Below, piece by piece: positions 1 through 31,968 of a stretch of DNA of 37,218 bases (positions are counted from its first letter, which is position 1; each line of letters starts with the position of its first letter). The notes beneath the pieces were generated by a model. It saw only the letters and a program-made list of their open reading frames with translations, had not been told where the DNA came from and made no database searches. The DNA is from a candidate division TA06 bacterium SM23_40 (GTDB taxonomy: Bacteria; LJUI01; SM1-40). Made by a program: the position numbers and the translations under genes. The stretch lies in NCBI GenBank assembly GCA_001303705.1, contig LJUI01000009.1, positions 1 through 37,218 of the forward strand, given 5' to 3'.

Positions 1-665
1 ATGAGGATATCGTAGCGTCCGCGAATCCTGTGCAGCGCCGCCTCGATCGACGCTACCGGATCAGTGACAACGAGCTCAGGATCATCCGCTTCTACTCTCG
101 GGATCGCTCCGCCGGAGACAAGCCCCAGGATGGCAATGCGCACGCCCCCCACAGGGATACCGAATATGCGGGTAGCGCCGAAACGCTTGATGATCCAGCG
201 CTCGACAAATGGTGTCCGCCTGTCAGCATGGAAGATATTCGTCGACAGGAGAGGAAGTCGGTAGGCATCCCTCATATGGAGGAGGAAGTTACCGCCGAAT
301 GTCAGATCGAAGTGCCCGACGTTGATGGCCGCACACCCGAGAGCGCCGAGCGAGCGAGAGATGTATTCGGCGGCGAGACGCTTCCCCGGATCGTTCGACA
401 GGAATCCTCCCGAATCGACAACGAGGGTGTGGGAGTCTCGCGACGTCCTTTCCAGGACGAAGGTGGCCCTCCGGGCCATCCCGCCGTAGCGGCCGGACCG
501 TCACCCGCAGGGTATGAGGGCGCTCGCCATGTTCCCCGAGTAGAATATTTTCAGGTTCTCTTTTCGTTCCCCCGGCGAGACAGGCCGGCACCCGGCCATG
601 CTGCACGCCACAAACATGGCTCCGGCGATGACCGTGCTCAGGACCCGATTGATGCCTGATATCAT
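1..665 (-). CDS. UshA/5'-nucleotidase-fold (seleno)lipoprotein, paralog 1; 3' end runs off the window; probable Sec at TGA 501-503 (residue 55)
   Basis: ATG at 665 after a purine-rich RBS. Signal peptide with lipobox MAGC, then IFYSGNMASALIPCG-TGA. Manual translation continues in frame without a stop to the window edge (RSGRYGGMARRATFV..LVVDSGGF..AAINVGHFD..LPLLSTNI..IIKRFG..IAILGL) and is collinear with 3087..4511. Confidence 0.88.
464..478 (-). promoter_or_regulatory. Putative bacterial SECIS apical hairpin (UGGCCC-GGA-GGGCCA)
   Basis: 6-bp stem with a G-starting loop, beginning 22 nt after the in-frame UGA. Same position as in the paralog. Confidence 0.72.
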
Positions 666-753
666 CCTGCCCTCTTGACCCGGATACCTACGCCTATCCC
701 GAGATCGCTCCGTCGATGGCTGATCTTGAAAATAATCCCTTGGTCTGTTCGAC

Positions 754-813
754 TGTCTGTCACACCGCTCGACCAATTGTCGGACCGCCCGAATGTCCGT
801 CACACCGCTCGAC
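754..813. repeat. Three degenerate 20-bp tandem units (TGTCYGTCACACCGCTCGAC)
   Basis: 754-773 and 794-813 are 19/20 identical. The middle unit 774-793 keeps TGTC..ACCGC.CGA. Confidence 0.6.
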
Positions 814-880
814 TACCCGTTCTCCGTCTCGCTTTCACCGTACGCCTGCACAGCCAGGTCCGGGATCCCTGCTGCGGCGC

Positions 881-2773
881 TCAGGGTCTGAGGAAGACAG
901 CCTTGCGCACCTGTCGATCCCCATGCACATCGAGCACGTACAGATAGAGGCCACAGGCTACCCTCACGCCCTCCTCGTCCCGGCCATCCCACTCAAACCG
1001 GCACCTACCGGGTATGGCTTCGCTGGCCTCGATCGTCCGGATGAGCTGGCCGGAGATATTGTATACCCGTATCGCAGGCAGCGGCGAATCCTCCGGAAGA
1101 GAGCAATTGATGGTCGTCAGTTGAGAGAACGGATTGGGGCAGTTCTGCCCCAGTCGAAGCAACCCGTCCGGGTTCGCCGCCGGCTGCTGCTCTCCTTCGA
1201 CCCCCACGCCCCCCAGCACCTCGAAGTCATACGTCTCCACGGGGGCCCCGGGAGGGGTCCGCGCCACGTTCCCCGGCCTATCTCTGGCCTCCACGTAGTA
1301 TCGGATCACAGTGCCCGGAGCCTGGCCGGGGATCTCGCCGCGGAAGAGACTCCCGCCGACCGGCCGCATCGCCAGGCTGTCGAACGTCGGCTCCTCCCCT
1401 GCCCGGTACAGGAGGTCGGCATCGAGGAGGAGCGTGTTGTCGAAACCGGTGACCGTGACCGCATAGGGCCCGAGGGTGTCGTATGTATCGGGCGGGTGCG
1501 AGCACGCGGCGAGAACAGGCGGGGTAGTGTCGGGAGCTCCGTACTGATTGATCAGCAATCTGTTCCGCTGCGGGCTGTTCGCCACCAGAAGATCGAGATC
1601 ATGATCCCCGTCGACATCTGAGAAGGCCGCGCCCTGACTGAAAGAGATATCCTCGGGCAGCCACGTCTCCGTGCTATCAACATAGACTCCGGCTCCTACG
1701 TTTATGTACATGCTGTTCTGTTCGTACCGCGCCACAAACAGATCGAAATCCCCGTCTCCGTCAACATCTCCGATCGCACCATCTGTCGCCTCGTCGAAGA
1801 ATGGTACAGACGGAATCCGCCAGCTCGTCTCATCCCGATACGCTCCTGCACCCGTGTTGATGAGCAGCCGGACATCATCTGAGTAACGGGCGAAGTTCGC
1901 AACGAATAGATCGAGCAGCGAGTCGCCACTCACATCACCGATTCTGATGTGGTAGGTCGTGTCGGCGAGGGCGGGCATGCGTCTGCGGCTGTCGTCCACA
2001 AATAGGCCGCTTCCGTCATTGATGAGCAACCGATTCTGGCGGGCGTCGTTACCGATGACGAGATCGAGGTCACCGTCGCCTTCGACATCACCGACGGCGA
2101 CGGCGCGGCTCGGGTTGCTGGCCGCGGGAAGGAGGGAGTCCGTCAGATCGCTGAAGTAGCCCAGACCATCGTTGACGAGCAGTCGGTTCTGTTCGTCCCG
2201 ATTCACGACCGCGATGTCGATATCGCCGTCACCGTCTACATCTCCCAGGGCAGCGCCGAAACTCAGCCCGTCGGCCGGAGGCAGTCGGAGGGCGCTCTCC
2301 TCGGCGAAATATCCGGAGCCATCGTTGACGAACAGTCTGTTCTGGTAGCCAACATTTGCGACAAGGAGATCGATATCGCCATCGCCGTCGATGTCGCCCA
2401 GCGACCCGTCGCGACTCGGCTCATTGGGAGCACCGGGCATGCGCGTATCCGTCTCGTCGGAGAAGAATCCGTCGCCGTCGTTTATGAGGAGAAAATTCTT
2501 GGCCCCTGCAGGCACGTAGTTCGAAATGTACAGATCGAGATCGCCATCACCGTCAATGTCGCCGGGCTCGATATCGAAACTGCTGTCGTTATAGTCCGGA
2601 AGCCTGAGGCTCGTCTCATCGAGGAAATGCTCCTGTGCCGCGGCCGCCGACGCCAGCGCTACCGCCGATAAGAGCACCATCGCGGCACGTCTGCGGCGGG
2701 CCCGCGGAAGCGGAGCGCACGGCGGGCAGACTGCGAACCGCGCTCCCGTTTTCGGATTCATCATCTGGTCCAT
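881..2773 (-). CDS. Secreted FG-GAP/VCBS repeat (beta-propeller) protein with C-terminal FlgD-Ig/T9SS-like sorting domain
   Basis: About 7 repeats of GD(I/V)DGDGD(L/I)D(L/I)..N....N.L..NDG.G.F.D, a signal-like RRRRAAMVLLSAVALASAAAA, and a C-terminal NCPNPF..VYNISGQLIR..WDGRD..GLYLY..RK. Start uncertain: the ORF is open to 2944, and ATG 2773 follows GGAGG. Confidence 0.85.
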   Translation of the reverse strand: MDQMMNPKTGARFAVCPPCAPLPRARRRRAAMVLLSAVALASAAAAQEHFLDETSLRLPDYNDSSFDIEPGDIDGDGDLDLYISNYVPAGAKNFLLINDGDGFFSDETDTRMPGAPNEPSRDGSLGDIDGDGDIDLLVANVGYQNRLFVNDGSGYFAEESALRLPPADGLSFGAALGDVDGDGDIDIAVVNRDEQNRLLVNDGLGYFSDLTDSLLPAASNPSRAVAVGDVEGDGDLDLVIGNDARQNRLLINDGSGLFVDDSRRRMPALADTTYHIRIGDVSGDSLLDLFVANFARYSDDVRLLINTGAGAYRDETSWRIPSVPFFDEATDGAIGDVDGDGDFDLFVARYEQNSMYINVGAGVYVDSTETWLPEDISFSQGAAFSDVDGDHDLDLLVANSPQRNRLLINQYGAPDTTPPVLAACSHPPDTYDTLGPYAVTVTGFDNTLLLDADLLYRAGEEPTFDSLAMRPVGGSLFRGEIPGQAPGTVIRYYVEARDRPGNVARTPPGAPVETYDFEVLGGVGVEGEQQPAANPDGLLRLGQNCPNPFSQLTTINCSLPEDSPLPAIRVYNISGQLIRTIEASEAIPGRCRFEWDGRDEEGVRVACGLYLYVLDVHGDRQVRKAVFLRP

Positions 2774-3086
2774 GTGGACGAGGGCCTCCATCCGATATCG
2801 CCGGCGGCGTCTGTGGCACCCCGCCAGCAATCCTCCTGTGGGCCTCGTCCAGGAGTCGCCACGGATCCGAGCGCTGATCTGGTGCATGAACTCCCGGACC
2901 GAGCTGATCAGCAATGAGCGTGCCCGGTCTCGAAACTGAGACACATGACACGCTCACCAGGTTTCTCAGACAGTCCCGTCATCTCAGCGAGCTCACTGAG
3001 ATAGGCAAGTCCATATCTTCCTGAGCCCCGCGGCCTCAAAGGTGTGTTCGCCATAGAAGACTCACAGCCTGAGCGATCTCAGGAAC

Positions 3087-4511
3087 TCAGTGAGCTACTT
3101 TCCGTCTATCCTCCGGGAAGTCGAATTCGGGATCCCGCTCCTGATTGTGACACCTCACACAGGTGTACATCGTGATTATAGGCAGCTCTGGCATCAACCT
3201 CCCGTCCGGGAGCTTATGTCGCTCGACGCCCTGCTCCCGGTTCAGGAGGTGCCGCATGCCGAAGCCGTGACACGTCTCGCACTGGACGTTGGCCATCTCG
3301 GGCGTGGTGTCTACGCTCCAGTATCCGTTATACTGGCGGAATCCGGTTGTGTGGCATGGCAGACATTCGAACTTCTTCCCTTCGTCCTCTCTCGTGCTGG
3401 ATTCCAGAGATGCATATGCATCGGCGTGTGCCGTCGTCTTCCACTGTTCGTATTGAGCCTGATGACACGAGCCGCAGCGCTCAGCCCCGGCATATACTTC
3501 CTGTACGTTCTCCGGCCTGGGCTGATTGATCTGAGCTTCGTGCAGTCCTTCCTTGTACTCAGCAATGAGTGCAACCATCGTCGAGTCCTCGCCGATCGAC
3601 TCATCGAGCCTCTGGAGCTTGCCCTCCCAGGACGTCACGCGATTCCTCTCATCGAGGTTGAGCAGAAGGTTGCCCTCGTTCTTTCCCTGCCACCCCGGCT
3701 CGACCATGGGGACACCGCTCCGGAGTTCGGGCTCCAAAGTTTGACGAGATGTGCGTCCGCCCACGAGGAGGTCGATGCCCGCCACCAGCTCCACCAGGGA
3801 GTCACACTGGGCCGTCGACATCTGGACGAGCGCGATGATGACATCACACCCATTCGCCTTCAGCGTCTTCATCGCATCACGCGCCGCCTCGTAGGGGTCT
3901 CCAACCATAAGCTTTCGATCATCCTCGGGCTGGGGCGGCATCTGCTGTGGCGGGGTCAACCCGTTCAATCCCAGAATGCCGACGGTCACATCTGGAGCAC
4001 GCCAGAAGAAGAAGCGAGGCCTCCCGAATTTCTTGATGATGAACGGTTCGGCAAAGAGTTCTCCTGTATCTTCATAGTAGACGTTCGCGGACACATAAGG
4101 CAGTCTGTACCTGCTACGGAGATCAGAGAGAAGGCTCGCTCCCAGTACCGTGTCCTTGAACCCGACGTTAATGGCGTCGTACCCGATCATCTTCATCGCC
4201 CGCAGAAGGTACCTGACTTTGATCTGGCTCATCCAGTCGCCCACATGGATGAAGTTCCCGGCGTCGACGATGAGCTGGTACGCATCCCCGCGACTGCTCT
4301 CCCGAATGTAGGTGGCTCTCCGAGCCATCCCGCCGTCACGGCGCCCGTGTCACCCGCACGGCTCCAGGTAATTCATCATGTTCCCGGAGTAGAAGACCTG
4401 GATTCCCTTCTTGGCCTCTCCCCCTTCAGAAGGAGAGCAGGAGAGAAGACCCAATGCCAGCAGCGCTCCGACGACGACTGCCGCACATAAACGTGTGTAG
4501 ATCCGATGCAT
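3087..4511 (-). CDS. UshA-fold (seleno)lipoprotein fused to tetraheme cytochrome c554-like domain, 474 aa; probable Sec at TGA 4350-4352 (residue 54)
   Basis: ORFs 4350..4550 and 3087..4328 are in the same frame and join as YLEPCG-U-HGRRDGGMARRATYI. Start ATG 4511 (MHRIY.., lipobox LLSC). Nucleotidase-like blocks IVDAGN, YDAINVG, LPYVSAN, VGILGL. Four heme motifs: CGSCH, CLPCH, CETCH, CVRCH. Confidence 0.92.
4313..4327 (-). promoter_or_regulatory. Putative bacterial SECIS apical hairpin (UGGCUC-GGA-GAGCCA)
   Basis: Begins 22 nt after the UGA. A U-A pair replaces the C-G pair of the 464..478 hairpin. Confidence 0.72.
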
Positions 4512-4546
4512 AACACCTACCCTCAACCTGAGCCTCCCTGGACTGG

Positions 4547-5704
4547 TCATTCGACTGCGTGAGTGCGTACTCGCTGCCCTCCTTCGCGACGAGCATCGAT
4601 GTCTGCTCCCTGATGACTACTGTCGATCCCGTACTGCGCGAACAATCTCCCCCACGGCGTCCGCTCAAATTGACGGATGCGCCTGCGCCCAATGGTTGGA
4701 TACCACAGGAGGTCGTGATAGATAGTCGATGCAACCGGCGCCCAAACCCAGAGCGGCGAATGGAGCGCAAGTCGCTTGAGCGGTCGGAGGGACCCCCGCC
4801 TCAGCATCTGGTCGCCACGGATCACCAGGCTCCGCTCACTCCGGAACCCAAGATTGACGTCCTCGATGCTGTCGCCGACGATCTCGACCTGCCGTGGATC
4901 AGCAACGCCCAGCCCGCGTTCCTGGGCCATCGCCAGATAGGGAATGGAGAGTGGGTCGAACCCCATTATCTCCGCTGCGACGGCGTCGATAGCAACCGAA
5001 TCGTTGCTCGCCAGAATAACATTCGCCACAACCGGCCTCATCGTTCGGGGCCCCGCGCCATCGCCCGCGACCGTTCCATCCATGACTGCAAAGATGCCGG
5101 TGTGAAGCTCCCGCTGCATGTACAGCAGATCGACCAGCACCTCGTGAATGAACTCGTGGCCGTAGTGACGAACCTCCTTCAGGAGTCCGCCGAATGCGTT
5201 CTTGATCGCCCCCGTGGTGACCGAGTGTCCGTGTGTCTTCACTGTCGGCAGATGGAGCACGTTCGTCCCGACAAACATCTTCGGGATCTCGATCCCGTCG
5301 GGGAATATCCGGGGTAGCTTCAACAGCGGCGCCTTGAACTCATACCGGATCCATTCCACCTCAGTCAGGGGTATGAAATCGAGGCCGTATCGCTCAAGCA
5401 CCCCCGCCCACTTGTTCTGTCTGGCTCCCTCAATGGGATTGGTGACGACTGTCTTGTTCTCGACGGGCAACAGATGGTCAGGGCTGTACCCATCTTCGAG
5501 CATGGTTCTGACTACACCCTCGAGTTGCCACGGCTGGCTCGAGCAGGCCGGAAAGTAGAGCGTCCACGAGAGGTTGAGTTTGAGGATCGTGTCGTGTTGA
5601 CGGAGAAGAGCCTCGTCGTAGCGAACGAGCCGCATCAACCGGGCATAGTCATCTAGTACAGTCTCTGGCGAAGTGAAGAGCACCCCGACGATTGCGTTTG
5701 CCAT
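4547..5704 (-). CDS. DUF362 family protein (putative Fe-S/LarA-related, uncharacterised)
   Basis: Motifs LKLNLSW, LPTVKTHGHSVTTGAIKNAFG, VMDGTVAGDGAGP and ASNDSVAIDAVAAEIMGFDP. ATG at 5704 preferred over GTG at 5716. Confidence 0.85.
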   Translation of the reverse strand: MANAIVGVLFTSPETVLDDYARLMRLVRYDEALLRQHDTILKLNLSWTLYFPACSSQPWQLEGVVRTMLEDGYSPDHLLPVENKTVVTNPIEGARQNKWAGVLERYGLDFIPLTEVEWIRYEFKAPLLKLPRIFPDGIEIPKMFVGTNVLHLPTVKTHGHSVTTGAIKNAFGGLLKEVRHYGHEFIHEVLVDLLYMQRELHTGIFAVMDGTVAGDGAGPRTMRPVVANVILASNDSVAIDAVAAEIMGFDPLSIPYLAMAQERGLGVADPRQVEIVGDSIEDVNLGFRSERSLVIRGDQMLRRGSLRPLKRLALHSPLWVWAPVASTIYHDLLWYPTIGRRRIRQFERTPWGRLFAQYGIDSSHQGADIDARREGGQRVRTHAVE

Positions 5705-5812
5705 CGAGCATTCCACGGAAAGAGATTACCAGGCCGCGAGCCGCAATCCTCCAGCCGTACCTGCTGAAGACGGCTCTGGCGGCCTAACGTGAAAAAGTCA
5801 CCACGATAGGTG

Positions 5813-17067: not shown

Positions 17068-19995
17068 CTACTTCAGCATAACCATCTTCCGTACGAGCGA
17101 CCGCGAGCCAGCCTCAAGTCGGTACAAGTATATCCCCGAGGAAACACGAGCACCACGGTCGTTCCGTCCGTCCCAGTGGACCGTATACACCCCCGCATCC
17201 TGGGGCTCATTCATCAGCTCGCGAACGAGCTGACCGGCGATGTTGTACACACGCAGACAGACCCGCTCGCCTCCCCTCGGAAGCGCATATGAGATCGTGG
17301 TCGACGGGCTGAACGGATTCGGATAATTCTGATTTAGCATGAAGGCATGCGGCCGCTCAGGATCGAACGGCGGCTCCTCGCTCACCTCAGTCACCAGCGC
17401 CAGCCACGTGAGCACCGAATCCATGAGCTCTGCCTTATGCATCGTCACCGGTGACGAGTCGTCAATCCATCCGAAGTCGAACCCGAAATAGATAAGCCTG
17501 TGACCCGTCGCCCCCGGACCGACCGAATCGACGTATGTGAGTGCAGCAACACCTCCGTCGATATCCAGATAGACGAGCCCTGTGTCCGCCCCGGCAAGCG
17601 GCTCGATCACGTCCTTCGATAGCTCCTGACAGACGAGTACGGTGTCGCCCAGGGGGCTGCCGGGCACACCCTCCAGCACATAGTTCGATGTCGTGCCCGA
17701 TACCAGATCAGCGTGCAGACGATCTGAGTAGAACGGCCAGGCACTGATCTCCTCACCGACGTTCGCTCCCGTGATGAACAGGCCGCCGCCGCCATCGAGG
17801 AACGCACCCAGCGCGAGAGTATCATCAGCAGTGACTGTACTCGTCGTCGCATCTCCCGTCAGCCAGACGACGATCGTGAACTTCGACAGCAAGACGTCAT
17901 CGGGAGACCCCTCTGTCTCCACCTCGTGCTCATCCCAGAGGAAGTTCTCGCGGTCGCCAAAGACCTGCTGGAAGGGCTCTTCATTGTCATCGCCGCCATC
18001 GTCATCGACCAGGAGAACATCAGGCCTCCCGATCCGCTGGACGAAGCTGTCTGTCTCGGCATAACCACCCGCTGCCGTCATGGCGAGATGGAACGTGATA
18101 TCCTCGCACTCTGCACCAGGAGCGACCTCGAACGCAAACGGATCGTCGAACGTCACCGTCGCATTGTGCAGCACCGGCAGAGCACGTGAGGCCATCGAAT
18201 CGGTGATCGTCACTGACGACGGGTTGCTCGAGTGGAGCGTCGCAGCGAACGAGTCTGCTTGCGCCCCCTGGTTCCTGACTGTCACCCAGAGATCGACAGC
18301 CTCACCAGGATCGGGGCGTTCATCTCCATTCCCGGACGAGTCATCGATCGTGTGATCGACATAGGAGATCAGCGGCTCCGCTGTGCCGAACCCTGTGAAT
18401 CCCCAGGCCTCACCCCAACACCACGTCCGCACGAAGTCGTTCCCGAGCTCACCCCGGCCATCCCCGCTCCAGTACCCCCAGCTGTTCTGGAAATAGAACA
18501 CACTATCCGGAGTACTGAACCCGACGAAGTCCCAGGCGTGGCCGCCGCGCGAGGTACAGAGTTCACACGGGTTACACAGACACCCATAACTCGACCAGCC
18601 ATCGCACCCGGGCTGGCCCTCACAGACACCTGATGCCGTGAGGAGGATGCCGTGATGGTACAGCGCGTCGCGCAGCCCGACCAGATCGAAAGTGTTCTGT
18701 ATGAAGAACGACGCAAGGAGGAAGTCATCTCCGCACGGCCCCTCGACGTCGGGGCAATCTCCTATGCATAACCCACTGCCACCGTTCGACATCGGACACC
18801 CCGGGTTGCAGCCGTACGGGGAGCACTCCTCCGTGCAGATACCGTCGATCGTGAGTAACTGGGGGGCATAGGAAGGCGAAGACCCCTCGCAGAACCCGAG
18901 CGGACAGGTGCCGCACTGAGCCCCGCTCGTCACGAGAGAGGAGAGGCAGGCTCCACCCTGCCCCGGGCAGCCGAATCCGCACCATCCCATGCGGCAGTCG
19001 GACCACCCGAGAACGCGCAGATGGTCATAGGCATTCTGCCGGCTGAGGACGGGCTCGATACAGACGCAGGAACCGTCCCCGTCCTTCTCGCAGAGACAGT
19101 CGTACAGCTCCGAGTCGCCGGTCCCCAGGTAGCAGAGACTGCCGCACAGCCACCAGTCGGCAACCGAGGAAACCGCATGGCCGGTGCACGATCCGTAGCT
19201 CCCCTGGTTCTTGATCGGCGGCATCACCGAGAGGGAAAACGCGGGAGGAGGCTGCATCGGGCTCTGCCACAACGAGGATGGCGTGGGCGCCCACTTCGCC
19301 TGCTCGTCCGCAAGCTGCTCATGGTCAGGACTGAGCAACGACCGAAGCGGCTGTTCCACAGGCGCCCGGGTCAGAAGCCGCGGATCGAGGCCATCCGGAG
19401 CGAGAATCGAGCTGACATCTGCACGGACCACATCGCCGTCCCGCGGTGAGGCCAGATAGAGGAGGTACCCATCCTCCTGGGAGAGTACGACCAGACGGGC
19501 CTCATCGCCGAACTCCTCGCCGGTCCACATCGATGCCACGGACTCCATCTCCTCCCAATCGCTGGCATCTATCTCATAGATCGGACGTCCGCCAGGACCC
19601 CAGTTCGGCGTGCCCACTGCCCTGCCGCTATACGGATCGAACTTGATGAACCCGCCGATAATGTCGCCCCTCTGGAGCGGGACCGCCCAGTACTTCGGCC
19701 CGACAGGACTGCAGAAAAGACGCGGCTTCCCCGCTCGGGCTCCGCTATAGAGAGCGAATAGCTCCTGCTGGATGATATCGCGCGGGTTCTGCGCCAGCAG
19801 GTGCTCGGCCCTCATGGCCCGCTCGGCGACATAGTCCTCCGCGATCGCCGCCATCTCGTCCGCTGAGAGCACCCCCTCTCCCAACTCGCCGAGCCACATC
19901 ACCTCGCTGCGAAACGGCTCGCGTGCTCCCTCTGCGCCAAGAGCACAACAGAATAGAATCAACAGACTCATCCCGACGGTCATTCTCGCTCTCAT
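17068..19995 (-). CDS. Secreted papain-like (C1) cysteine protease, Cys-rich, with FlgD-Ig/T9SS-like tail; copy 1 (975 aa)
   Basis: Signal peptide, PIKNQGSYGSCTGHA (oxyanion Gln and catalytic Cys), GGHAWDFVG (His), FYFQNSWG (Asn), and C-terminal NYPNPF..WDGRND..RKMVMLK. ATG 19995 follows AAGGAG. Confidence 0.88.
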   Translation of the reverse strand: MRARMTVGMSLLILFCCALGAEGAREPFRSEVMWLGELGEGVLSADEMAAIAEDYVAERAMRAEHLLAQNPRDIIQQELFALYSGARAGKPRLFCSPVGPKYWAVPLQRGDIIGGFIKFDPYSGRAVGTPNWGPGGRPIYEIDASDWEEMESVASMWTGEEFGDEARLVVLSQEDGYLLYLASPRDGDVVRADVSSILAPDGLDPRLLTRAPVEQPLRSLLSPDHEQLADEQAKWAPTPSSLWQSPMQPPPAFSLSVMPPIKNQGSYGSCTGHAVSSVADWWLCGSLCYLGTGDSELYDCLCEKDGDGSCVCIEPVLSRQNAYDHLRVLGWSDCRMGWCGFGCPGQGGACLSSLVTSGAQCGTCPLGFCEGSSPSYAPQLLTIDGICTEECSPYGCNPGCPMSNGGSGLCIGDCPDVEGPCGDDFLLASFFIQNTFDLVGLRDALYHHGILLTASGVCEGQPGCDGWSSYGCLCNPCELCTSRGGHAWDFVGFSTPDSVFYFQNSWGYWSGDGRGELGNDFVRTWCWGEAWGFTGFGTAEPLISYVDHTIDDSSGNGDERPDPGEAVDLWVTVRNQGAQADSFAATLHSSNPSSVTITDSMASRALPVLHNATVTFDDPFAFEVAPGAECEDITFHLAMTAAGGYAETDSFVQRIGRPDVLLVDDDGGDDNEEPFQQVFGDRENFLWDEHEVETEGSPDDVLLSKFTIVVWLTGDATTSTVTADDTLALGAFLDGGGGLFITGANVGEEISAWPFYSDRLHADLVSGTTSNYVLEGVPGSPLGDTVLVCQELSKDVIEPLAGADTGLVYLDIDGGVAALTYVDSVGPGATGHRLIYFGFDFGWIDDSSPVTMHKAELMDSVLTWLALVTEVSEEPPFDPERPHAFMLNQNYPNPFSPSTTISYALPRGGERVCLRVYNIAGQLVRELMNEPQDAGVYTVHWDGRNDRGARVSSGIYLYRLEAGSRSLVRKMVMLK

Positions 19996-20622
19996 CGCAG
20001 GTTTCTCCTTTCCCGTCTCCGTAGACCTATCGAGTTCTCGGAAGTAGCCATGCACGCCGCCGCCCCAAATCCTGGAATCCCTCCGGCCTCTCCGTGAGGC
20101 CGAAGCCAGGGGCAGAAAAAATGGGCAGGGAGCACCTCAGCCCCTACCCCATAGGTGTCAGATTGAAGAAAGACTGGCCGCGCCCGAATCGGCCAATACC
20201 CCACCCCCACCCTACCCTCCCCAACCCCCTTATCATACTAACCCCCGGCACGCTACTGTCAAGTCCCGGGTCGGCCGCACCCGGAGAGCCGCTTTCCCCG
20301 TAGGCTCGTCCAAACAGAGGATCCCCTGGGGGACTGGCCCTCAGGATGACACAGATCCCCGCAGCCCGTACACTGAGCCCGAAAACCGAGGATCGAGGGA
20401 GACCGTGACCCCGCCTATTATGGGACCCGCGACAGAATGAGTACCGGCACCCCACCCCTGCCCGTTGAGGATCGAAGAAGTGAAGGGACAGACGTCACCC
20501 AATCCCTCCCCACGGAGCAGAGCCGAAGAGAGAATACATCGGGTCAACATACCCCTACCCACGAGGCAGAGCCGGACATGTGGATCCGTACCGGTCACCA
20601 TACCCTTATGCAAACAGCAGCG

Positions 20623-20658
20623 CAAAAAGAACGGGTAGGGAGATCGAACTCCCTACCC
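20623..20658 (-). terminator. Intrinsic terminator after protease copy 2
   Basis: Perfect 10-bp stem GGGTAGGGAG/CTCCCTACCC with a 6-nt loop, followed on the minus strand by GTTCTTTTTG. Confidence 0.8.
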
Positions 20659-20726
20659 ATTGAGTGAACCAGTGGCCGTAGCCCGTATGTTGACGCGCTT
20701 GCGGTGGCGTCGCCCACGCCCTCGTT

Positions 20727-23648
20727 CTACTTCAGCATCACCATCTTCCGTACCAGCGACCGCGAGCCAGCTTCAAGGCGATAGAAATACACTCCTGAGG
20801 AGACCCGAGACCCACGGTCATTTCGTCCGTCCCAGTGGACCATATAGGCTCCTGCCTCCTGCGGCTCGTCGACGAGCTCACGGACGAGCTGGCCTGCGAT
20901 GTTGTAGACACGCAGGCACACCCGCTCACCGTTGCTGGGAAGCGCATACGAAATCGCCGTCGATGGACTGAACGGATTCGGATGGTTCTGCTTCAGCATG
21001 AAGACATGGGGACGCTCAGGATCGAACGGCGGCTCCTCGGTCACCTCAGTCACCAGCATCAGCCAGGTGAGAATCGAATCCATCAGCTCGGGTTTGTGCA
21101 TCGCTATCGGCGACTGATCATCGATCCAGCCGAAATCGAACCCGAAGTACACGAGCCGGTGACCCGTTGCCCCGGGACCCACCGAATCGACATAAGTTAT
21201 GGCCGCCACCCCGCCGTCCATGTCCAGATAGATGAGAGCCGTATCAGCCTCCGCAAGCGGCTCGATCACATCTTTCGATGACTGCTCACAGATCAAGAAC
21301 GTGTCACACAGAGCGCTCGTCGGCACACCGTCCAGCACATAGTTCGCCGTCGTGCCTGATACAAACCCGGCGTGGAGACGATCCGAGTAGAATGGCCAGC
21401 TGTTGATCTCCTCACCGATGTTGGCACCCGTGAGGAAGAGGCCGCCGCCTCCATCGAGAAACGAACCAAGAACAACCGTATCAGCGGCAGTGACCGTGTT
21501 GGCCGTCGCATCTCCTGTCAGCCAGACGATGATCGGAAACTTCGACAGCAGAACTTCATCGGGAGATCCCTCTGTCTCCACCTCATGTTCATCCCAGAGG
21601 AAGTCCACGCGCCCCTCGAATACCTCCTGAAACGCCTCCTCGTTATCCGCTCCGCCGTCGTCGTCGACGAGGAGCACATCAGGCCTGCCGATCCGCTGTA
21701 CAAAGCTATCGGTCTCGGCATAGCCGCCCGCCGCGGTCATGGCGAGGTAGAAGGTAATATCCTCACACTCCGCACCAGGAGCAACCTCGAAGGCGAACGG
21801 ATCGTCGAAGGCCGCCGACCAGTTGTGGAGCACCGGCAGCGCACGCGATGCCGTGGCATCGGTGATATTGACCGCCGACGGATTGCTGCAGGAGAGCGTT
21901 GCCTGTAGCGAGTCGGCCTGGGCACCTATATTCCTCACCGTGGCCCAGAGCTCGACTGTCTCCCCGGGATCCGGCCTCCCGTCGTTGTTCCCCGAGGAAT
22001 CGTCGATCGTGTGCTCATCATAATAGAGCTTGGGCTCAGTCGGAGTGAACCCCCAGAAGAGATACGCCGCAGTTCCGCACCACCGCCGCACATAGCTATT
22101 GCCAAGCTCACCACGGCCGTCGCCGCCCCAGTACCCCCAGCTGTTCTGGAAGTAGAACAGGCTATCCGGCGCATTATACCCGACCAAGTCCCAAGCGTGC
22201 CCCCCGCTTGGCCCACACGAAACGCACGGATCACACAGACAGCCATAACTCCCCCAGCCATCACATCCAGCCTGTGCGCCGTTACATACAGTGCTGCTGG
22301 CGAGGAGGATCCCGTGATGATAAATGGCATCCCGCAATCCCGGGATATCGTCTGTCGACTGTGTCGCATATCCCTGGAGGAGAAAGTCGTCGCCGCATGG
22401 CCCTTCGACGTCAGGGCAGTCCCCGGTGCACTGACCGCTCCCGCCGTTCGACATGGCACATCCCGGATCACATCCGTAATGAACGCACTCCTCCGTACAC
22501 AGCCCGTCGAGCACGAAGATCGGACCTGCGTACTGCGGCGAGGAACCCTCGCACCGGTCGCAGGTGCCGCACTCGACGCCGCTGGTCACAAGCGAGCTGA
22601 GACACGACCCTCCTACGCCCGGACAGCCCGGCTCACACAGCCCCTGACGGCAGTCAGCATTGCCAAGGTACCGAAGGCGGTCATAGGCATTCTGTCGGCT
22701 CAGTACCGGATCGACGCAGACACACGCACCGTCCGAATCCTTCTCACAGAGACAGTCATATAGCTCGGAGTCGCCTGTCCCCATGTAACAGAGACTGCCG
22801 CACAGCCACCAGTCGCCGCACGATGAGGTTGCGTGCCCTGTGCATGATCCGTACCCACCCTGATCCTTGATCGGCGGCATCACGGTCAGAGAAAAGACGT
22901 CCGGCTGCATCGAACCCCGCCGTGACGGTGGAGTCTCCGGGACCTGACGAACCTGCTCTTGCCCCATCGGTCCCTGGTCCAGGCCGAGTGACGATCGAAG
23001 AGATCGCTCCACTGGCGCCGTTGCCAACAGCCGCGGATCGAGACCCGTGGGAGCGAGGATCGAACTGACGTCAGCTCGCACGACCCCATCGCCGCTCGGC
23101 GACGCAAGGTAGACCAGGTACCCATCCTCTTGCTCCAGGATAACCACCCGTGTCTCGCCGCCGAACCGCTCTCCAGTCCACGCCGATGCGAACGACTCCA
23201 TCTCATCCCATTGACGACCGTCAATCGAATAGAGAGGCTCACCGCCCGCTCCCCAATTGGGAGTCCCCACTGCTTTTCCACTATACGGATCAAACTTGAT
23301 AAATCCCCCTATCGTATCTCCTCGCTGAAGTGGCACCGCCCAGTACTTCGGGCTGAGTGCGGTGAAGAAGAGCCGCGGCTTTCCTGCCCTGGCTCCGTTG
23401 TACAGATTGAATAGCTCGCTCTGGATGATGTCGCGTGGATTGGCCGCCAAAAGACGCCTGGCCTTCACAGCCCGTTCCTCGATATACTGCTGCGCCACTG
23501 CGGCGATTTCCTCGGTCGATAGCGCACCGTCATGGAGCTCGCCGAGCGACATCACCTCGGTGCGAAACGGTTCCCGTGCCCCCTGGGCACCTAAGGCACA
23601 ACAGAGGAGGATGAGCACGCTCACCCCGATGGCCATCCTGGTCCTCAT
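20727..23648 (-). CDS. Secreted papain-like (C1) cysteine protease, copy 2 (973 aa)
   Basis: IKDQGGYGSCTGHA, GGHAWDLVG, QNSWG. Collinear with copy 1. RBS AAGGAG. Confidence 0.88.
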   Translation of the reverse strand: MRTRMAIGVSVLILLCCALGAQGAREPFRTEVMSLGELHDGALSTEEIAAVAQQYIEERAVKARRLLAANPRDIIQSELFNLYNGARAGKPRLFFTALSPKYWAVPLQRGDTIGGFIKFDPYSGKAVGTPNWGAGGEPLYSIDGRQWDEMESFASAWTGERFGGETRVVILEQEDGYLVYLASPSGDGVVRADVSSILAPTGLDPRLLATAPVERSLRSSLGLDQGPMGQEQVRQVPETPPSRRGSMQPDVFSLTVMPPIKDQGGYGSCTGHATSSCGDWWLCGSLCYMGTGDSELYDCLCEKDSDGACVCVDPVLSRQNAYDRLRYLGNADCRQGLCEPGCPGVGGSCLSSLVTSGVECGTCDRCEGSSPQYAGPIFVLDGLCTEECVHYGCDPGCAMSNGGSGQCTGDCPDVEGPCGDDFLLQGYATQSTDDIPGLRDAIYHHGILLASSTVCNGAQAGCDGWGSYGCLCDPCVSCGPSGGHAWDLVGYNAPDSLFYFQNSWGYWGGDGRGELGNSYVRRWCGTAAYLFWGFTPTEPKLYYDEHTIDDSSGNNDGRPDPGETVELWATVRNIGAQADSLQATLSCSNPSAVNITDATASRALPVLHNWSAAFDDPFAFEVAPGAECEDITFYLAMTAAGGYAETDSFVQRIGRPDVLLVDDDGGADNEEAFQEVFEGRVDFLWDEHEVETEGSPDEVLLSKFPIIVWLTGDATANTVTAADTVVLGSFLDGGGGLFLTGANIGEEINSWPFYSDRLHAGFVSGTTANYVLDGVPTSALCDTFLICEQSSKDVIEPLAEADTALIYLDMDGGVAAITYVDSVGPGATGHRLVYFGFDFGWIDDQSPIAMHKPELMDSILTWLMLVTEVTEEPPFDPERPHVFMLKQNHPNPFSPSTAISYALPSNGERVCLRVYNIAGQLVRELVDEPQEAGAYMVHWDGRNDRGSRVSSGVYFYRLEAGSRSLVRKMVMLK

Positions 23649-23801
23649 CGCATGTCTCTCCTTTCTCCTGCCCGCAAACCTGTAAGAACTCCCGTCGCGA
23701 AGATGTAAGTGACTTCGTCATCGACGCTAACAAGAAACAAGCAGACCCATCCACCACCCCTTCGCCACTGGTCCTTGCCCGGGATCTGCCCTCTCCTGCC
23801 T

Positions 23802-23830
23802 AGCTTACCGGATCCGCCTGCGATTGTCAA
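23802..23830 (-). promoter_or_regulatory. Sigma70-type promoter of protease copy 2
   Basis: TTGACA-17 bp-TAAGCT. Confidence 0.65.
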
Positions 23831-24054
23831 CCATAATGAGCCACAAAAACTGAGAAAAAGTCCACACCTATCTGTTTCGGCAGCGACGGCTGCATCCATT
23901 TACAACACCGTAACTTCCGCCCCAGTTCCCCAGTACCGCCGGGACCGGACCGGGATCATCCCTGGCGAGATCCGGCCAGGGCAGATAGCCCCAGAACATG
24001 AATGGGCAACGCCCCGGATGCGGCGAGGGGAAAACCGGGCCTTGTCGGCCCCCC

Positions 24055-26982
24055 TCACTTCAGCATTACCATCTTGCGCGCCAGCGAACGCGAGCCAGCC
24101 TCAAGGCGGTAGAAATAGACCCCTGAGGAGACTTGAGACCCACGGCCATTTCGCCCATCCCAGCGGACCGTATACATTCCCGCATCGTGTGGCTGGTCGA
24201 CGAGCTCACGGACGAGCTGGCCCGCGATGTTGTAGACACGCAGGCAGACCTGCTCACCGCTGCTGGGAACCGCATACGAAATCACCGTCGACCCGCCAAA
24301 CGGATTGGGGGAGTTCTGCTTCAACAAGAAGACATGCGGACGCTCGGGATCGAACGGCGGCTCCTCGCTCACACCCGTCACCAGCATCAGCCATGTGAGC
24401 ACCGAATCCATCAACTCCGGCTTGTGCATCGCCACCGGCGACTGGTCATCGATCCACCCGAAGTCGAAGCCGAAGTACACCATCCGGTGACCGGTCGCAC
24501 CCCGCCCTACCGAATCGACATAGGTGATGGCCGCCACCCCGCCGTCCATGTCCAGATAGATGAGCGCCGTATCCGCCTCGGCAAGCGGCTCGATCACATC
24601 CTTCGACGGCTCTTCGCAGATGAGGAGCGTGTCACACAGAGCGCTCGTCGGCACACCGTCGAGCACATAGTTGGCCGTCGTCCCCGAGACAAACCCGGCG
24701 TGCAGCCGATCCGAGTAGAACGGCCAGCCGCTGATCTCCTCACCGATGTTTGCTCCCGTGAGGAAGAGGCCGCCGCCGCCATCCAGAAACGCACCAAGCG
24801 CGAGCGTATCGTCGGCAGTCACCGTGTTCGCCGTCGCGTCACCCGTCAGCCAGACCACAAGAGGATACCTCGACAGCAGCGCCCCATCGGGAGATCCCTC
24901 AGTCTCCACCTCGTGCTCATCCCAGAGGAAGTCCTCGCGATCCCCGAATACCTGCTGGAACGGCTCCTCGTTGATCGCCCCGCCGTCATCGTCCACGAGC
25001 AGCACATCCGGTCTGCCGATCCGCTGGACGAAGCTGTCGGTCTCTGCGTAGCCGCCCGCCGCCGTTATGGCGAGGTAGAACGTGATGTCCTCGCACTCCG
25101 CACCGGGATCGACCTCGAAGACGAAGGGATCATGGAAGGACGCCGTCTGGTTGTGGAGGAGGGGCAACTGACGTGATGCAGTAGAGTCGGTGATGATCAC
25201 AGCAGAAGGATTGCTCGATGAGAGTGTGGCCTCGACCGAATCGGCCTGCACGCCGGCGTTCTTGACCGTGACCCACAATTCGATCGTCTCTCCCGGATCA
25301 GGCCTGCCGTCGGCATTGCCAGATGAATCATCAACCGCATGCGCCATGTAGAATATCCTGGGTATCGTCGCATTGTATCCCTCGAATCCCCATGTCTCAC
25401 CGTAGCACCACCGCCGTATGAAGCTATTCCCCAGCTCGCCCCTGCCGTCGCCGCTCCAATATCCCCAGCTATTCTGGAAGTAGAAGAGGCTGTCGGGAGC
25501 GTTGTACCCGACGAGGTCCCAGGCGTGGCCCCCACGCGACGTGCACGCCTCGCACGGATCGCACAGGCATCCATAGCTTGACCAACCATCGCACCCCGGC
25601 TGTCCCAGGCAGACCCCGGAAGCTGCCAGGATGATACCATGATGATAGATGGCCTCCCGCAGCCCGGGTAGATCGTTTGTCGACTGGATGAAGTATGACC
25701 GGAGCACGAAGTCATCACCACAGTCTCCCGCCACATCCGGGCAGACGTCCGTACACTGCCCGCTCCCGCCGTTCGAGAGCGCACAGCCGGGATCGCACCC
25801 ATATGAGGCGCACTCTTCGGTGCAGAGACCATCGTTCAGGAATATATGTGGAGCATACACGGGATCTGACCCCTCGCAGTACCCGTACGGACAGGTCCCA
25901 CACTCGACTCCGCTCGTCACGAGGGAGCTGAGACAGGCACCACCCTGCCCGGGGCATCCCCCTGCGCACAGCCCCTGGCGGCAGTCGGCACCGCCCAGGT
26001 AGCGCAATCGATCATAAGCATTCTGCCGGCTCAGGATCGGATCGATGCACTCACACGAACCGTCCGGATCCTTCTCACAGAGACAGTCATACAGCTCTGA
26101 ATCGCCCGTGCCCAGATAACAGATGCTCCCGCAGAGCCACCAGTCCCCGACAGAAGAGACGGCATGGCCGGTGCACGATCCGTACCCTCCCTGATTCTTG
26201 ATCGGGGGCATTACCGAGAGCGAGAAGACATCGGGAGGTTGCATCGCGCCCTGCCACAGAGACAGGAGAGCAGGCGCGGTCTCCGCCTGCTCGTCAGCTC
26301 GCCGTTGGTGGTCAGGGCTGAGCAGCGAGCGAAGCGGCCGCTCGGCCGGCGCCTTCGTCAACAGCCGCGGATCGAGGCCGGTCGGTGCGAGAATCGAACT
26401 GACATCCGCCCTGACCACATCGTCGCCCCGCGGCGACGCCAGGTACAATAGATGCCCGTCCTCCTGCATCAGAACCAGGAGACGGGTCTCATCTCCGAAC
26501 CGCTCGCCCGTCCACAGGGTGGCGATCGACTCCATCTCCTCCCACTGACGAGCATCTATCGAATAGAGCGGTCGGCCACCTGCACCCCAGTTCGGAGTGC
26601 CCACCGCCTTCCCACTGTACGGATCGAACTTTATGAACCCGCCTATCGTGCCTCCTCTCTGTAGCGGCACAGCCCAGTACTTCGGACCCAGCTGGCTGAA
26701 GAAGAGCCGCGGTTTTCCTGCCCTGGCCCCGTCATACAGATTGAATATCTCGTTCTGAATAATGTCGCGCGGATCACCCGCCAACAGGCGCTCGGCCTTC
26801 AGCGCCCGCTCCTCGATATAGCGCTGCGCAACCCAAGCCATCTCGTCAGCCGACATCACCCCCTCCTGGAGCTCGCCGAGCCAGGTCACCTCGGCACGAA
26901 ACGGCTGCCGCGCTGCCTGAGCCCCCAGAGCATAACAGAACAGGATGAGCACCATCACCCATGCGGTCCACCTGGCATTCAT
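24055..26982 (-). CDS. Secreted papain-like (C1) cysteine protease, copy 3 (975 aa)
   Basis: IKNQGGYGSCTGHA, GGHAWDLVG, QNSWG. Start ATG 26982 chosen by alignment with the paralog signal peptides. Confidence 0.88.
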   Translation of the reverse strand: MNARWTAWVMVLILFCYALGAQAARQPFRAEVTWLGELQEGVMSADEMAWVAQRYIEERALKAERLLAGDPRDIIQNEIFNLYDGARAGKPRLFFSQLGPKYWAVPLQRGGTIGGFIKFDPYSGKAVGTPNWGAGGRPLYSIDARQWEEMESIATLWTGERFGDETRLLVLMQEDGHLLYLASPRGDDVVRADVSSILAPTGLDPRLLTKAPAERPLRSLLSPDHQRRADEQAETAPALLSLWQGAMQPPDVFSLSVMPPIKNQGGYGSCTGHAVSSVGDWWLCGSICYLGTGDSELYDCLCEKDPDGSCECIDPILSRQNAYDRLRYLGGADCRQGLCAGGCPGQGGACLSSLVTSGVECGTCPYGYCEGSDPVYAPHIFLNDGLCTEECASYGCDPGCALSNGGSGQCTDVCPDVAGDCGDDFVLRSYFIQSTNDLPGLREAIYHHGIILAASGVCLGQPGCDGWSSYGCLCDPCEACTSRGGHAWDLVGYNAPDSLFYFQNSWGYWSGDGRGELGNSFIRRWCYGETWGFEGYNATIPRIFYMAHAVDDSSGNADGRPDPGETIELWVTVKNAGVQADSVEATLSSSNPSAVIITDSTASRQLPLLHNQTASFHDPFVFEVDPGAECEDITFYLAITAAGGYAETDSFVQRIGRPDVLLVDDDGGAINEEPFQQVFGDREDFLWDEHEVETEGSPDGALLSRYPLVVWLTGDATANTVTADDTLALGAFLDGGGGLFLTGANIGEEISGWPFYSDRLHAGFVSGTTANYVLDGVPTSALCDTLLICEEPSKDVIEPLAEADTALIYLDMDGGVAAITYVDSVGRGATGHRMVYFGFDFGWIDDQSPVAMHKPELMDSVLTWLMLVTGVSEEPPFDPERPHVFLLKQNSPNPFGGSTVISYAVPSSGEQVCLRVYNIAGQLVRELVDQPHDAGMYTVRWDGRNGRGSQVSSGVYFYRLEAGSRSLARKMVMLK

Positions 26983-27124
26983 GGTTGCGATCCCCCCTAT
27001 ACTCCCGAAGACCCTGTTTGAGGATGCAGTATGCAACATCGATCCCTCCACAAGACCAGCAAGGGCAGATCCGTCAGCTGCCGCTCACGCGGGTACCTCT
27101 GCCCGGGACCTGCCCCTTGCCTCG

Positions 27125-27153
27125 ATATTATCGAATAGACGCTGAGGTGTCAA
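27125..27153 (-). promoter_or_regulatory. Sigma70-type promoter of protease copy 3
   Basis: TTGACA-17 bp-TAATAT. The downstream sequence resembles that of the copy 2 promoter. Confidence 0.7.
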
Positions 27154-27184
27154 GCCTTGTGAGCCAACAAGCGGCGCGAGGCGC

Positions 27185-30115: not shown

Positions 30116-30391
30116 CACTGCCACCCCCTCGTATAGTGTGTGTGAAATGCCAATGGGGGATCAATCCCCCCCCAGCAATCAGTCGGGATTGCTGGATCTC
30201 TCGCCGATTTTTGCCTCAAATCTATGGGAGGTCCCGTGTATCATGTCCGATGCATCAACGTGAATCGGACTGAGGAGGAAACAGCTGCACCCCCTTGCGG
30301 CTCCCGTATCGAAAAATCCACACGGCCTCCTTCCCAGAAGGCATTACCGGGTTCTTCAGGCAGCCAATCTAGGAGGCGAGGCCACCATCAC

Positions 30392-31401: not shown

Positions 31402-31968
31402 CTATTTTCCCTTTTCTTTCTTCTCTTCCTGCGCCTCTTCTCCCGTCTCCTTCTCGATCATATGGATCCCTTCGGGACTGGCCACGTATTCTTCATAGTC
31501 GAAGCCCGTGAATTCAGGACTTCGCTCGTTATGGCACTTCACGCACACCTCCGGCCCCGGAGGGATGATTAGCCCCTTTGAGATGGCCAGTTCTCGATCC
31601 TTCATCACCGACGCGTTCCAGTAGTTGCTCCCCGCTCCGTGACACGCCTCACATTGCACGTTCACCATCTGCGGGGTACTCTCCAGATCGACGAACCCGC
31701 CCTCCTCTCCGTACCCGGTGGTGTGACAAGAGAGACACATCTTATTAGCCTTCGCCTCGTCGTCCAGGCTGTCGATGGCGTGGGCATGGACCGTCTTCTC
31801 CCACGCAGCGAAGATATCGGAGTGGCACATCTTGCATTTCTTCTGACCGACGTAAGTCGCTGGTGCTTCCTCTTCCTCGGCTTGCTCAGCAACAAGACCG
31901 CCCCAAGCAACAAGGCAGAGGCCAACAGCCAGCACGACAGCCAGATACCTCAACAGAGCAGCGTGCAC
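31402..31968 (-). CDS. Periplasmic tetraheme cytochrome c554-like protein
   Basis: Signal peptide, YVG..KCKMCH, CLSCHTTG, VQCEACHG and CVKCH. Confidence 0.9.
   Translation of the reverse strand: MHAALLRYLAVVLAVGLCLVAWGGLVAEQAEEEEAPATYVGQKKCKMCHSDIFAAWEKTVHAHAIDSLDDEAKANKMCLSCHTTGYGEEGGFVDLESTPQMVNVQCEACHGAGSNYWNASVMKDRELAISKGLIIPPGPEVCVKCHNERSPEFTGFDYEEYVASPEGIHMIEKETGEEAQEEKKEKGK

Follow-up and report, generated by a model that had tools for sequence, protein, structure and literature searches.

The DNA analysed here (the window) comprises positions 1 to 37,218 of contig LJUI01000009.1 from the candidate division TA06 bacterium SM23_40 (assembly GCA_001303705.1), and its subject is a gene, termed W1, on the minus strand. 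Two open reading frames (ORFs) make up this gene, one of 66 amino acids (4350..4550) ending in NYLEPCG and one of 413 amino acids (3087..4328) beginning with MARRATYIRE. They share the same frame, and the sole interruption between them is a single TGA at 4350-4352. A sequence-only reading of the window had joined the two across this TGA, had placed a selenocysteine (Sec) at residue 54 and had pointed out that only the upstream piece carries a signal peptide and lipobox. The coordinates and the read-through block (LEPCG-U-HGRRDGGMARRAT) confirm the joined frame. The residue number is right when counted from the alternative start, ATG 4511, and becomes 67 when counted from ATG 4550, the start used here. 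The leader (MTSPGRLRLRVGVMHRIYTRLCAAVVVGALLALGLLSC), in which LGLLSC resembles the lipobox pattern L-x-[GAS]-C, is by eye found only in the upstream piece; the leaders of many Cys-form relatives likewise end in GC or SC, and an AlphaFold2 (AF2) model of W1 has a helix at residues 10-36. Because the leader ends, as judged by eye, in a lipobox, W1 is predicted to be a lipoprotein. The database product is the 413-residue form starting at Met75 (P0003), the kind of mis-annotation by gene callers that had been anticipated; since the record has only this leaderless piece, a predicted heme lipoprotein is entered as a hypothetical protein that looks cytoplasmic. The features of W1 and of its paralog W2 are as follows.

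3087..4550, minus strand: W1, predicted complete selenoprotein gene; 487 codons followed by a TGA stop at 3087-3089; matched by NF041198 in both halves
4437..4550, minus strand: signal peptide and lipobox, residues 1-38 (ending in GALLALGLLSC), read by eye
4350..4358, minus strand: Cys65-Gly66-Sec67 motif (TGC GGG TGA), with the predicted Sec codon at 4350-4352
4310..4330, minus strand: hairpin resembling a selenocysteine insertion sequence (SECIS), with a 9-column helix and a GGA triloop, formed by the codons of G-M-A-R-R-A-T
3546..4409, minus strand: degenerate domain of the 5'-nucleotidase (UshA) N-terminal type, residues ~48-335, with the canonical metal and catalytic residues all replaced
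3090..3518, minus strand: cytochrome c554-like tetraheme domain, residues ~345-487, with four CxxCH
3462-3476, 3351-3365, 3267-3281 and 3147-3161, minus strand: the CxxCH sites, starting at C359, C396, C424 and C464
3..803, minus strand: W2, paralog of W1, cut by the contig end, with PCG-TGA at 501-503 and a hairpin at 461-481

The interrupting codon recurs at the same place in relatives of W1. A homolog scan with one genome per species gave at least 600 pattern matches, 537 of which were confirmed as relatives, and the aligned codon was scored in the best 80 of these 537 loci. It is TGA in 62 and Cys in 18, a ratio that is biased towards Sec because likeness to a Sec-form query decided the ranking of the 80 loci. 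In full-length Cys forms from the protein database PCGC aligns with PCGU, and the C-G-C/U motif is present in all 82 aligned family members. The arrangement is also repeated within the window by W2 (LIPCG-TGA-RSGRYGGMARRAT), which is 37% identical to W1 over the shared part and lies 2.3 kb downstream of it, with an FG-GAP/FlgD-Ig gene (881-2944) in between. In a FastTree phylogeny of 82 sequences W1 pairs with W2 as its sister, both on long branches, beside two Eisenbacteria-labelled loci. The PCG-TGA of W2 and the TGA in the same column of 62 of the 80 related loci together exclude chance as the origin of the in-frame TGA of W1.

The codon is followed by a hairpin, which in W1 has the arms GGAUGGCUC and GAGCCACCU around the GGA triloop; the first loop base lies 31 nucleotides (nt) past the first base of the UGA. 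This spacing fits the rules for bacterial SECIS elements that Zhang and Gladyshev are said to have set out in 2005. Between this hairpin and that of W2 (GGAUGGCCC-GGA-GGGCCACCU) there is one compensatory change, from U-A to C-G. A stem of at least 5 base pairs with a GGN triloop, 24-31 nt downstream of the codon, was found in 58 of the 64 Sec forms (the 62 loci together with W1 and W2) and in none of the 18 Cys forms. Over the 58 aligned hairpins 94% of the cells of the nine-pair helix are paired, five of the nine pairs have changed on both sides and the covariation score was reached by none of 500 shuffles; slid controls pair at 29-50%. The 58 hairpins were picked by their five inner pairs and the outer pairs were unselected. 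Among the 46 distinct rows, the unselected pair 7-21 forms in all 46 and pair 6-22 in 39, and the outermost pairs are weaker (5-23 in 29 of 46; 4-24 in 45 of 46, without change on both sides). An Rfam scan of 300-4700 at E<=5 returned neither a SECIS nor another relevant family, and its three matches, near 2040-2190, are at chance level. The conserved ARRA peptide is encoded by self-complementary codons that make the SECIS stem in W1 (4310-4330), in W2 (461-481) and in the related loci, and ARRA occurs in 45 of the 64 Sec forms versus one of the 18 Cys forms (counts not corrected for kinship). An RNA constraint thus accounts for part of the conserved N-terminal block.

The genome carries the machinery that decoding would require. 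The genes selA (557.9 bits) and selB (391.9 bits) are adjacent on contig 5; selD (374.4 bits) has an in-frame TGA of its own, and the tRNA-Sec (77.7 bits, anticodon tca) lies directly upstream of it (L006 and L010; contig 58:183-1365). Positions 4350-4352 are identical in the contigs of four other public sequencing runs, which argues against an assembly error. The sequence-only reading had taken the alignment of Cys with UGA as the mark of Sec; the alignment, the machinery, the covarying hairpin and the unchanged TGA all agree with it, and to the extent that sequence can establish it, the TGA of W1 is decoded as Sec.

With U read as C, W1 is matched at 251.5 bits by NF041198 ('UshA-like (seleno)protein', UshA_like_PCGU, 519 positions), positions 8-272 of which align to residues 34-304. 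The last 337 residues alone score 173.9 bits against positions 344-518, the matched part being the last 177 residues. Like this family, W1 has the hallmark P-C-G-[U/C] ahead of the GG-x-ARRAT block, an UshA-like N-domain and a tetraheme part at the C-terminus, and the family has both Sec and Cys forms. Relatives score above the curated cut-off of 275 bits (P0009, 392 bits; P0020, 355 bits) and W1 scores below it, so that W1 is a divergent relative or paralog and not a strict equivalog. It has lost the His, His and Asp of metal site 2 that most members retain, and it is one of two diverged paralogs 2.3 kb apart. Four CxxCH motifs are present in 81 of the 82 aligned members, the exception being the truncated W2. 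Because NF041198 spans the tetraheme domain and 81 of 82 members have it, this domain is the normal family architecture. What had been described as a lipoprotein fused to a tetraheme cytochrome does have its four hemes' attachment sites, but the fusion is not a special one, and its novelty had been overrated. W1 is a mis-called selenoprotein of a catalogued family, a divergent paralog without a metal site, and its tetraheme domain is not new. Gene callers split both W1 and W2 in two, as they do most relatives.

Membership in a second family, NF049981 ('UshA-like (seleno)protein family 2'), was considered and rejected. The match is weak (36.8 bits over residues 51-129, far under the cut-off of 140), and the motif of W1 is CxU, not the CxxU given for that family (PMC13188914).

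Prediction of UshA-like selenoproteins, as the sequence-only reading had noted, goes back further. The Global Ocean Sampling (GOS) selenoproteome paper has the family as 'COG0737, UshA-like' with a CxU motif and 76 sequences (PMC2398784), a 2022 review lists an UshA-like CxU selenoprotein (PMC9312934) and a 2026 review lists the UshA-like CxU family and names NF041198 (PMC13188914). Where these three papers deal with the family they give neither hemes nor a function for it. A literature search found no publication on a nucleotidase with a multiheme cytochrome and selenocysteine, none on a metallophosphoesterase with cytochrome c554 and, among the papers listed, none on a heme-linked DsbA oxidase. 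A family listed as a selenoprotein since 2008 (PMC2398784) thus stands in the literature, as far as these entries go, without an assigned function, and it is large: among 1.84 billion, 420 cluster representatives match at E<=1e-30. Of the 41 sampled Nitrospinota genomes 40 have the family, as do all 41 genomes sampled from the phylum to which an Eisenbacteria-labelled metagenome-assembled genome (MAG) belongs, hereafter the Eisenbacteria phylum; in the latter it mostly has an internal TGA (40 of 40 genomes have the family without the unpublished G100). Many Eisenbacteria-phylum genomes have several copies, some of them of Cys type within stop-to-stop frames of 945-1515 amino acids, and N-domain-only copies (some with TGA) directly adjoin a full-length copy. 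Two ad-hoc hidden Markov models (HMMs) did not find a DsbA-like domain in eight of these long Cys-type paralogs, and the N-terminal extension of five has no Pfam family above its cut-off (Peptidase_M61_N, 22.8 versus 23 bits, in L110).

The AF2 model of W1 (58-row alignment) has a predicted local distance difference test (pLDDT) value of 87.8 and a predicted template modelling (pTM) score of 0.81. The best PDB matches of its N-domain in Foldseek are 5'-nucleotidases (CD73, UshA and the Thermus enzyme; E ~1e-22, template modelling (TM) score ~0.5). The N-domain shares with that of 5'-nucleotidase, UshA and CD73 (1ush, 4h1y, 5h7w) the fold, the GG-x-ARRAT block and the strand order, but differs in its replaced metal and catalytic residues, in the Cys-Gly-Sec loop after motif I and in the absence of a C-terminal nucleotide-binding domain. 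PF02872, the C-terminal substrate-binding domain, has no match in W1, residues 345-487 of which are cytochrome. A profile alignment places the Sec column opposite a Cys of eukaryotic 5'-nucleotidases. Compared with solved 5'-nucleotidases, DAGD has become DAGN, GNHE has become GFKD, GH has become VQ and GGH has become GGR, with Met in place of His at motif I. At the nine motif columns (DxH, GD, GNH(E/D), GH, GGH) W1 reads N-M-D-N-F-K-D-Q-R, which is not the ligand set of an active UshA; the residues compared were taken from the alignments.

This loss is more complete in W1 than in most of the family. The majority of members keep half of the metal site, D-x-D-D-E-x-D/E-H-H: of the 82, 58 have a His at motif IV, 57 have one at motif V and 57 have the bridging Asp. 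Loss is nearly universal for the motif I His and for the catalytic His, each of which persists in three of 82, and W1 and some clades keep no metal-site residue. Nearly every member has the Cys-Gly-Cys/Sec loop and the heme sites, together with one Asp (79 of 82) and an acidic residue that follows motif III (82 of 82).

The heme domain matches PF13435 (cytochrome c554) at 69.7 bits, against a gathering threshold of 20.8, and the Nitrosomonas cytochrome c554 structure 1bvb with an E value of 1.1e-11 over ~82 aligned residues. Both proteins have four CxxCH in c554-like spacing. Unlike c554, the cytochrome of W1 is one domain of a larger lipoprotein, and NF043010 scores 49.8 bits against its cut-off of 400. 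The window also contains a stand-alone c554-like tetraheme cytochrome (188 amino acids; 31402-31968, minus strand) that is 40% identical to the heme domain of W1, adjoined by a 726-residue multiheme protein with NapC/NirT, c3 and c7 domains (32355-34535, minus strand).

Links to thiol/disulfide chemistry come from relatives of W1. Three proteins of the representative library (P0081, P0100 and P0103; ~1190-1207 amino acids) are composite. P0100 and P0103 (~1190 amino acids) consist of an UshA-like module with C-E/D-C, a thioredoxin-fold domain, a second such segment, an UshA-like C-x-C module and four hemes; a cis-Pro 'TPT' loop and CPHC or CIHC mark their thioredoxin-fold domains. P0081 is built in the same order, but its CxxC has decayed. 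In P0189 and P0070 a DsbA-like domain lies at the C-terminus. As the Pfam DSBA/Thioredoxin_4 scores of the fusion proteins (23-28 bits) are at or just under gathering, the DsbA-like call in them rests on the motifs as well. Three further proteins (P0111, P0177 and P0157) have DUF1573 or Ig-like domains instead of DsbA-like segments. Eight of the 18 Cys-form loci, seven of them from Nitrospinota and one Nitrospira-labelled (L043, L059, L077, L080, L088, L095, L100 and L039), have a gene for a secreted DsbA-like protein of ~207 amino acids directly downstream on the same strand, with the PDI-type motif CGHC in seven and CEHC in one; among these loci the Cys-form gene of Nitrospinota is followed by such a gene in every case. 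A complex prediction for a Nitrospinaceae UshA-like protein and its adjacent DsbA-like protein scored 0.01 against a mark of 0.32, which speaks neither for nor against an interaction. The fusions and the adjacency tie the CxC/CxU loop to thiol/disulfide exchange.

Other recurring neighbours were rejected as functional clues. Across the neighbourhoods of 81 loci lptD occurs in 28, HU in 24, a Mur-ligase-type gene in 22 and accD in 19, and in 28 of the 81 (for example L038, L050 and L064) the Sec-form gene lies within a conserved accD/Mur-ligase-type/lptD/HU block of housekeeping genes, in MAGs labelled Eisenbacteria, Krumholzibacteria, Fibrobacteraceae and Gemmatimonas. None of these neighbours is shared with the window, and they are read as lineage synteny. 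Downstream ORFs that are conserved (clusters 8 and 15) lack both a Pfam match and a Cys motif.

Taken together, these results suggest that W1 is a genuine, divergent NF041198 selenoprotein that probably acts as a periplasmic Cys-Gly-Sec selenosulfide/heme relay, coupling thiol/disulfide chemistry to cytochromes. The protein would be exported by the general secretory pathway, after which the hemes would be attached. Cys65 and Sec67 would cycle between the selenol/thiol and selenenylsulfide states, and their loop, which lies where the active-site loop used to be, would exchange electrons with the four c-type hemes, which are predicted to stand where true 5'-nucleotidases have their substrate-binding C-domain. 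W1 would in this way couple periplasmic thiol/disulfide chemistry to the cytochrome pool, whichever way the electrons flow. That a redox centre is wired to the hemes, as the sequence-only reading had proposed, is something that we infer, now backed by the DsbA-like fusions and neighbours. The thiol/disulfide role itself is drawn from those fusions and neighbours in relatives and not from the genome of W1.

Several observations weigh against such a relay. The NF041198 score of W1 (251.5 bits) falls short of the curated cut-off, and none of the neighbours of W1 (DUF362, alkaline phosphatase and FG-GAP proteins) is found at a related locus. A DsbA-like neighbour occurs at none of the 62 Sec-form loci, and no DsbA-like gene (PF01323, PF13462) was found in the genome of W1, which is 89.8% complete. 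In the half-site members the Cys/Sec loop could serve a metal instead, and among the public sequencing runs that match the stretch there is no RNA run. The DsbA-like fusions and neighbours, the identity of ARRA with the SECIS stem and the split of the family into half-site and no-site members make heme-linked thiol/disulfide chemistry a testable hypothesis.

The direction of electron flow separates two more specific readings. A reductive role is a tentative alternative, in which the selenosulfide would receive electrons from periplasmic cytochromes by way of the four hemes and the selenol would then reduce an oxidant such as a peroxide, disulfide, sulfoxide, polysulfide or selenite, as peroxidase-type or reductase-type selenoproteins do. 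Reductive selenoenzymes usually pair a Sec with a resolving Cys close by. The family also occurs in anaerobic lineages (loci labelled Desulfatiglans and Thermodesulfobacteriota), and its CxU motif is the one listed in the GOS paper (PMC2398784). However, the neighbourhood contains no conserved gene for a reductase-type partner or substrate, and the sole recurring thiol partner is DsbA-like, with sites of the PDI/DsbA type that are more typical of oxidases and isomerases.

Flow in the outward direction appears rather unlikely. Here the CGC/CGU loop would re-oxidize a DsbA-like partner or substrates and pass the electrons through the c-type hemes to the respiratory chain, without DsbB or VKOR. 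Its broadest form, equally doubtful in our judgement, is that the UshA-like CxU/CxC tetraheme family, W1 included, provides a third, heme-c-based periplasmic disulfide route that replaces DsbB/VKOR in whole phyla, namely the Nitrospinota and Eisenbacteria-type lineages, with selenocysteine speeding the exchange. Electrons from DsbA-like partners, or straight from substrates, would enter at the CxC/CxU loop and pass to the c-type cytochrome pool. DsbB and VKOR are quinone-linked DsbA re-oxidases, and the DsbA-like association and the complementary distribution in Nitrospinota suggest that the family possibly does the same job. W1 is nevertheless unlike them, with no relation in sequence or fold, and is predicted to be a soluble lipoprotein with c-type hemes and not a membrane quinone enzyme. 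The co-occurrence of the family with DsbB and VKOR was compared in samples that are small and uncorrected for kinship; among the genomes searched, that of W1 is the sole one of its phylum, its nearest relatives being 'same domain' only.

Genome of W1: family present; DsbB not found; VKOR not found
Five carrier genomes (G041-G045): family in 5 of 5; DsbB in 0 of 5; VKOR in 0 of 5
Five carrier genomes (G126-G130): family in 5 of 5; DsbB in 0 of 5
41 Nitrospinota genomes: family in 40 of 41; DsbB in 1 of 41; VKOR in 1 of 41
41 Eisenbacteria-phylum genomes: family in 41 of 41; DsbB in 0 of 41; VKOR in 5 of 41
101 Acidobacteriota genomes: 19 two-domain carriers and 3 with the N-domain only; DsbB in 7 of 101; VKOR in 33 of 101

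Together with the DsbA-like fusions and neighbours, what favours outward flow is that neither DsbB nor VKOR was found in the genome of W1 or in five carrier genomes, and that in the 41-genome Nitrospinota sample the sole genome without the family (G062) is the sole one with DsbB and VKOR. This complement is clean, yet it may reflect one evolutionary event. Against it, five of the 41 family carriers of the Eisenbacteria phylum also have VKOR, and no DsbA-like gene was found in the genome of W1. In Acidobacteriota, DsbB or VKOR is present in 5 of 19 two-domain carriers versus 33 of 79 non-carriers (Fisher p 0.30, not significant, kinship uncorrected), and 46 non-carriers lack the family, DsbB and VKOR alike. 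The idea that the family replaces DsbB/VKOR survives, with support confined to Nitrospinota and not extending beyond them.

A very unlikely reading is that the Cys/Sec loop is not a redox pair but a ligand, either of a metal bound at what is left of the dimetal site or, axially, of a heme, for which the His/Cys hemes of TsdA and SoxA offer a comparison. Most relatives keep the site-2 set Asp, Glu/Asp, His and His; H375 and H434 are the only invariant histidines of the heme domain outside the CxxCH motifs, and H487, a C-terminal His, looks conserved by eye. W1, however, has kept CGU and the SECIS-like hairpin without any site-2 ligand, and P0189 has lost CxC (it reads YGY) while keeping its hemes.

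A genuine stop or an error at the TGA, which would mean two genes, a pseudogene or a mis-assembly, is hardly credible: gene callers do give the 413-residue product from Met75, but the codon recurs in one column as TGA in 62 loci and Cys in 18, with W2 in agreement, the hairpin covaries, the contigs of four other runs keep the TGA, and the downstream ORF alone has no export signal although heme attachment needs the periplasm. We give as little credence to a working 5'-nucleotidase or phosphoesterase with a mere cytochrome tail; likeness to 5'-nucleotidases, UshA and SoxB in fold and in HMM matches is offset by the replacement of all W1 residues at the DxH, GD, GNH, GH and GGH motifs and by a heme domain in the place of the nucleotide-binding C-domain.

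The surroundings of W1 contain genes for a DUF362 protein, an alkaline phosphatase, a protein with TPR and transglutaminase parts and the FG-GAP/FlgD-Ig protein, and at related loci none of them recurs. The first of these lies immediately upstream.

4547..5716, minus strand: DUF362 gene, the TGA stop of which overlaps the start of W1 as ATGA

Farther along the window, four tandem paralogous genes of ~975-1000 amino acids each (17068-30124, minus strand) encode proteins with a C-terminal FlgD-Ig/type IX secretion sorting domain and no further Pfam match. Between 34888 and 36816, also on the minus strand, genes for GcvH-like, CCG-domain (HdrB-like) and 4Fe-4S dicluster (HdrC-like) proteins follow one another in series, and this row may constitute a heterodisulfide-reductase-like module.

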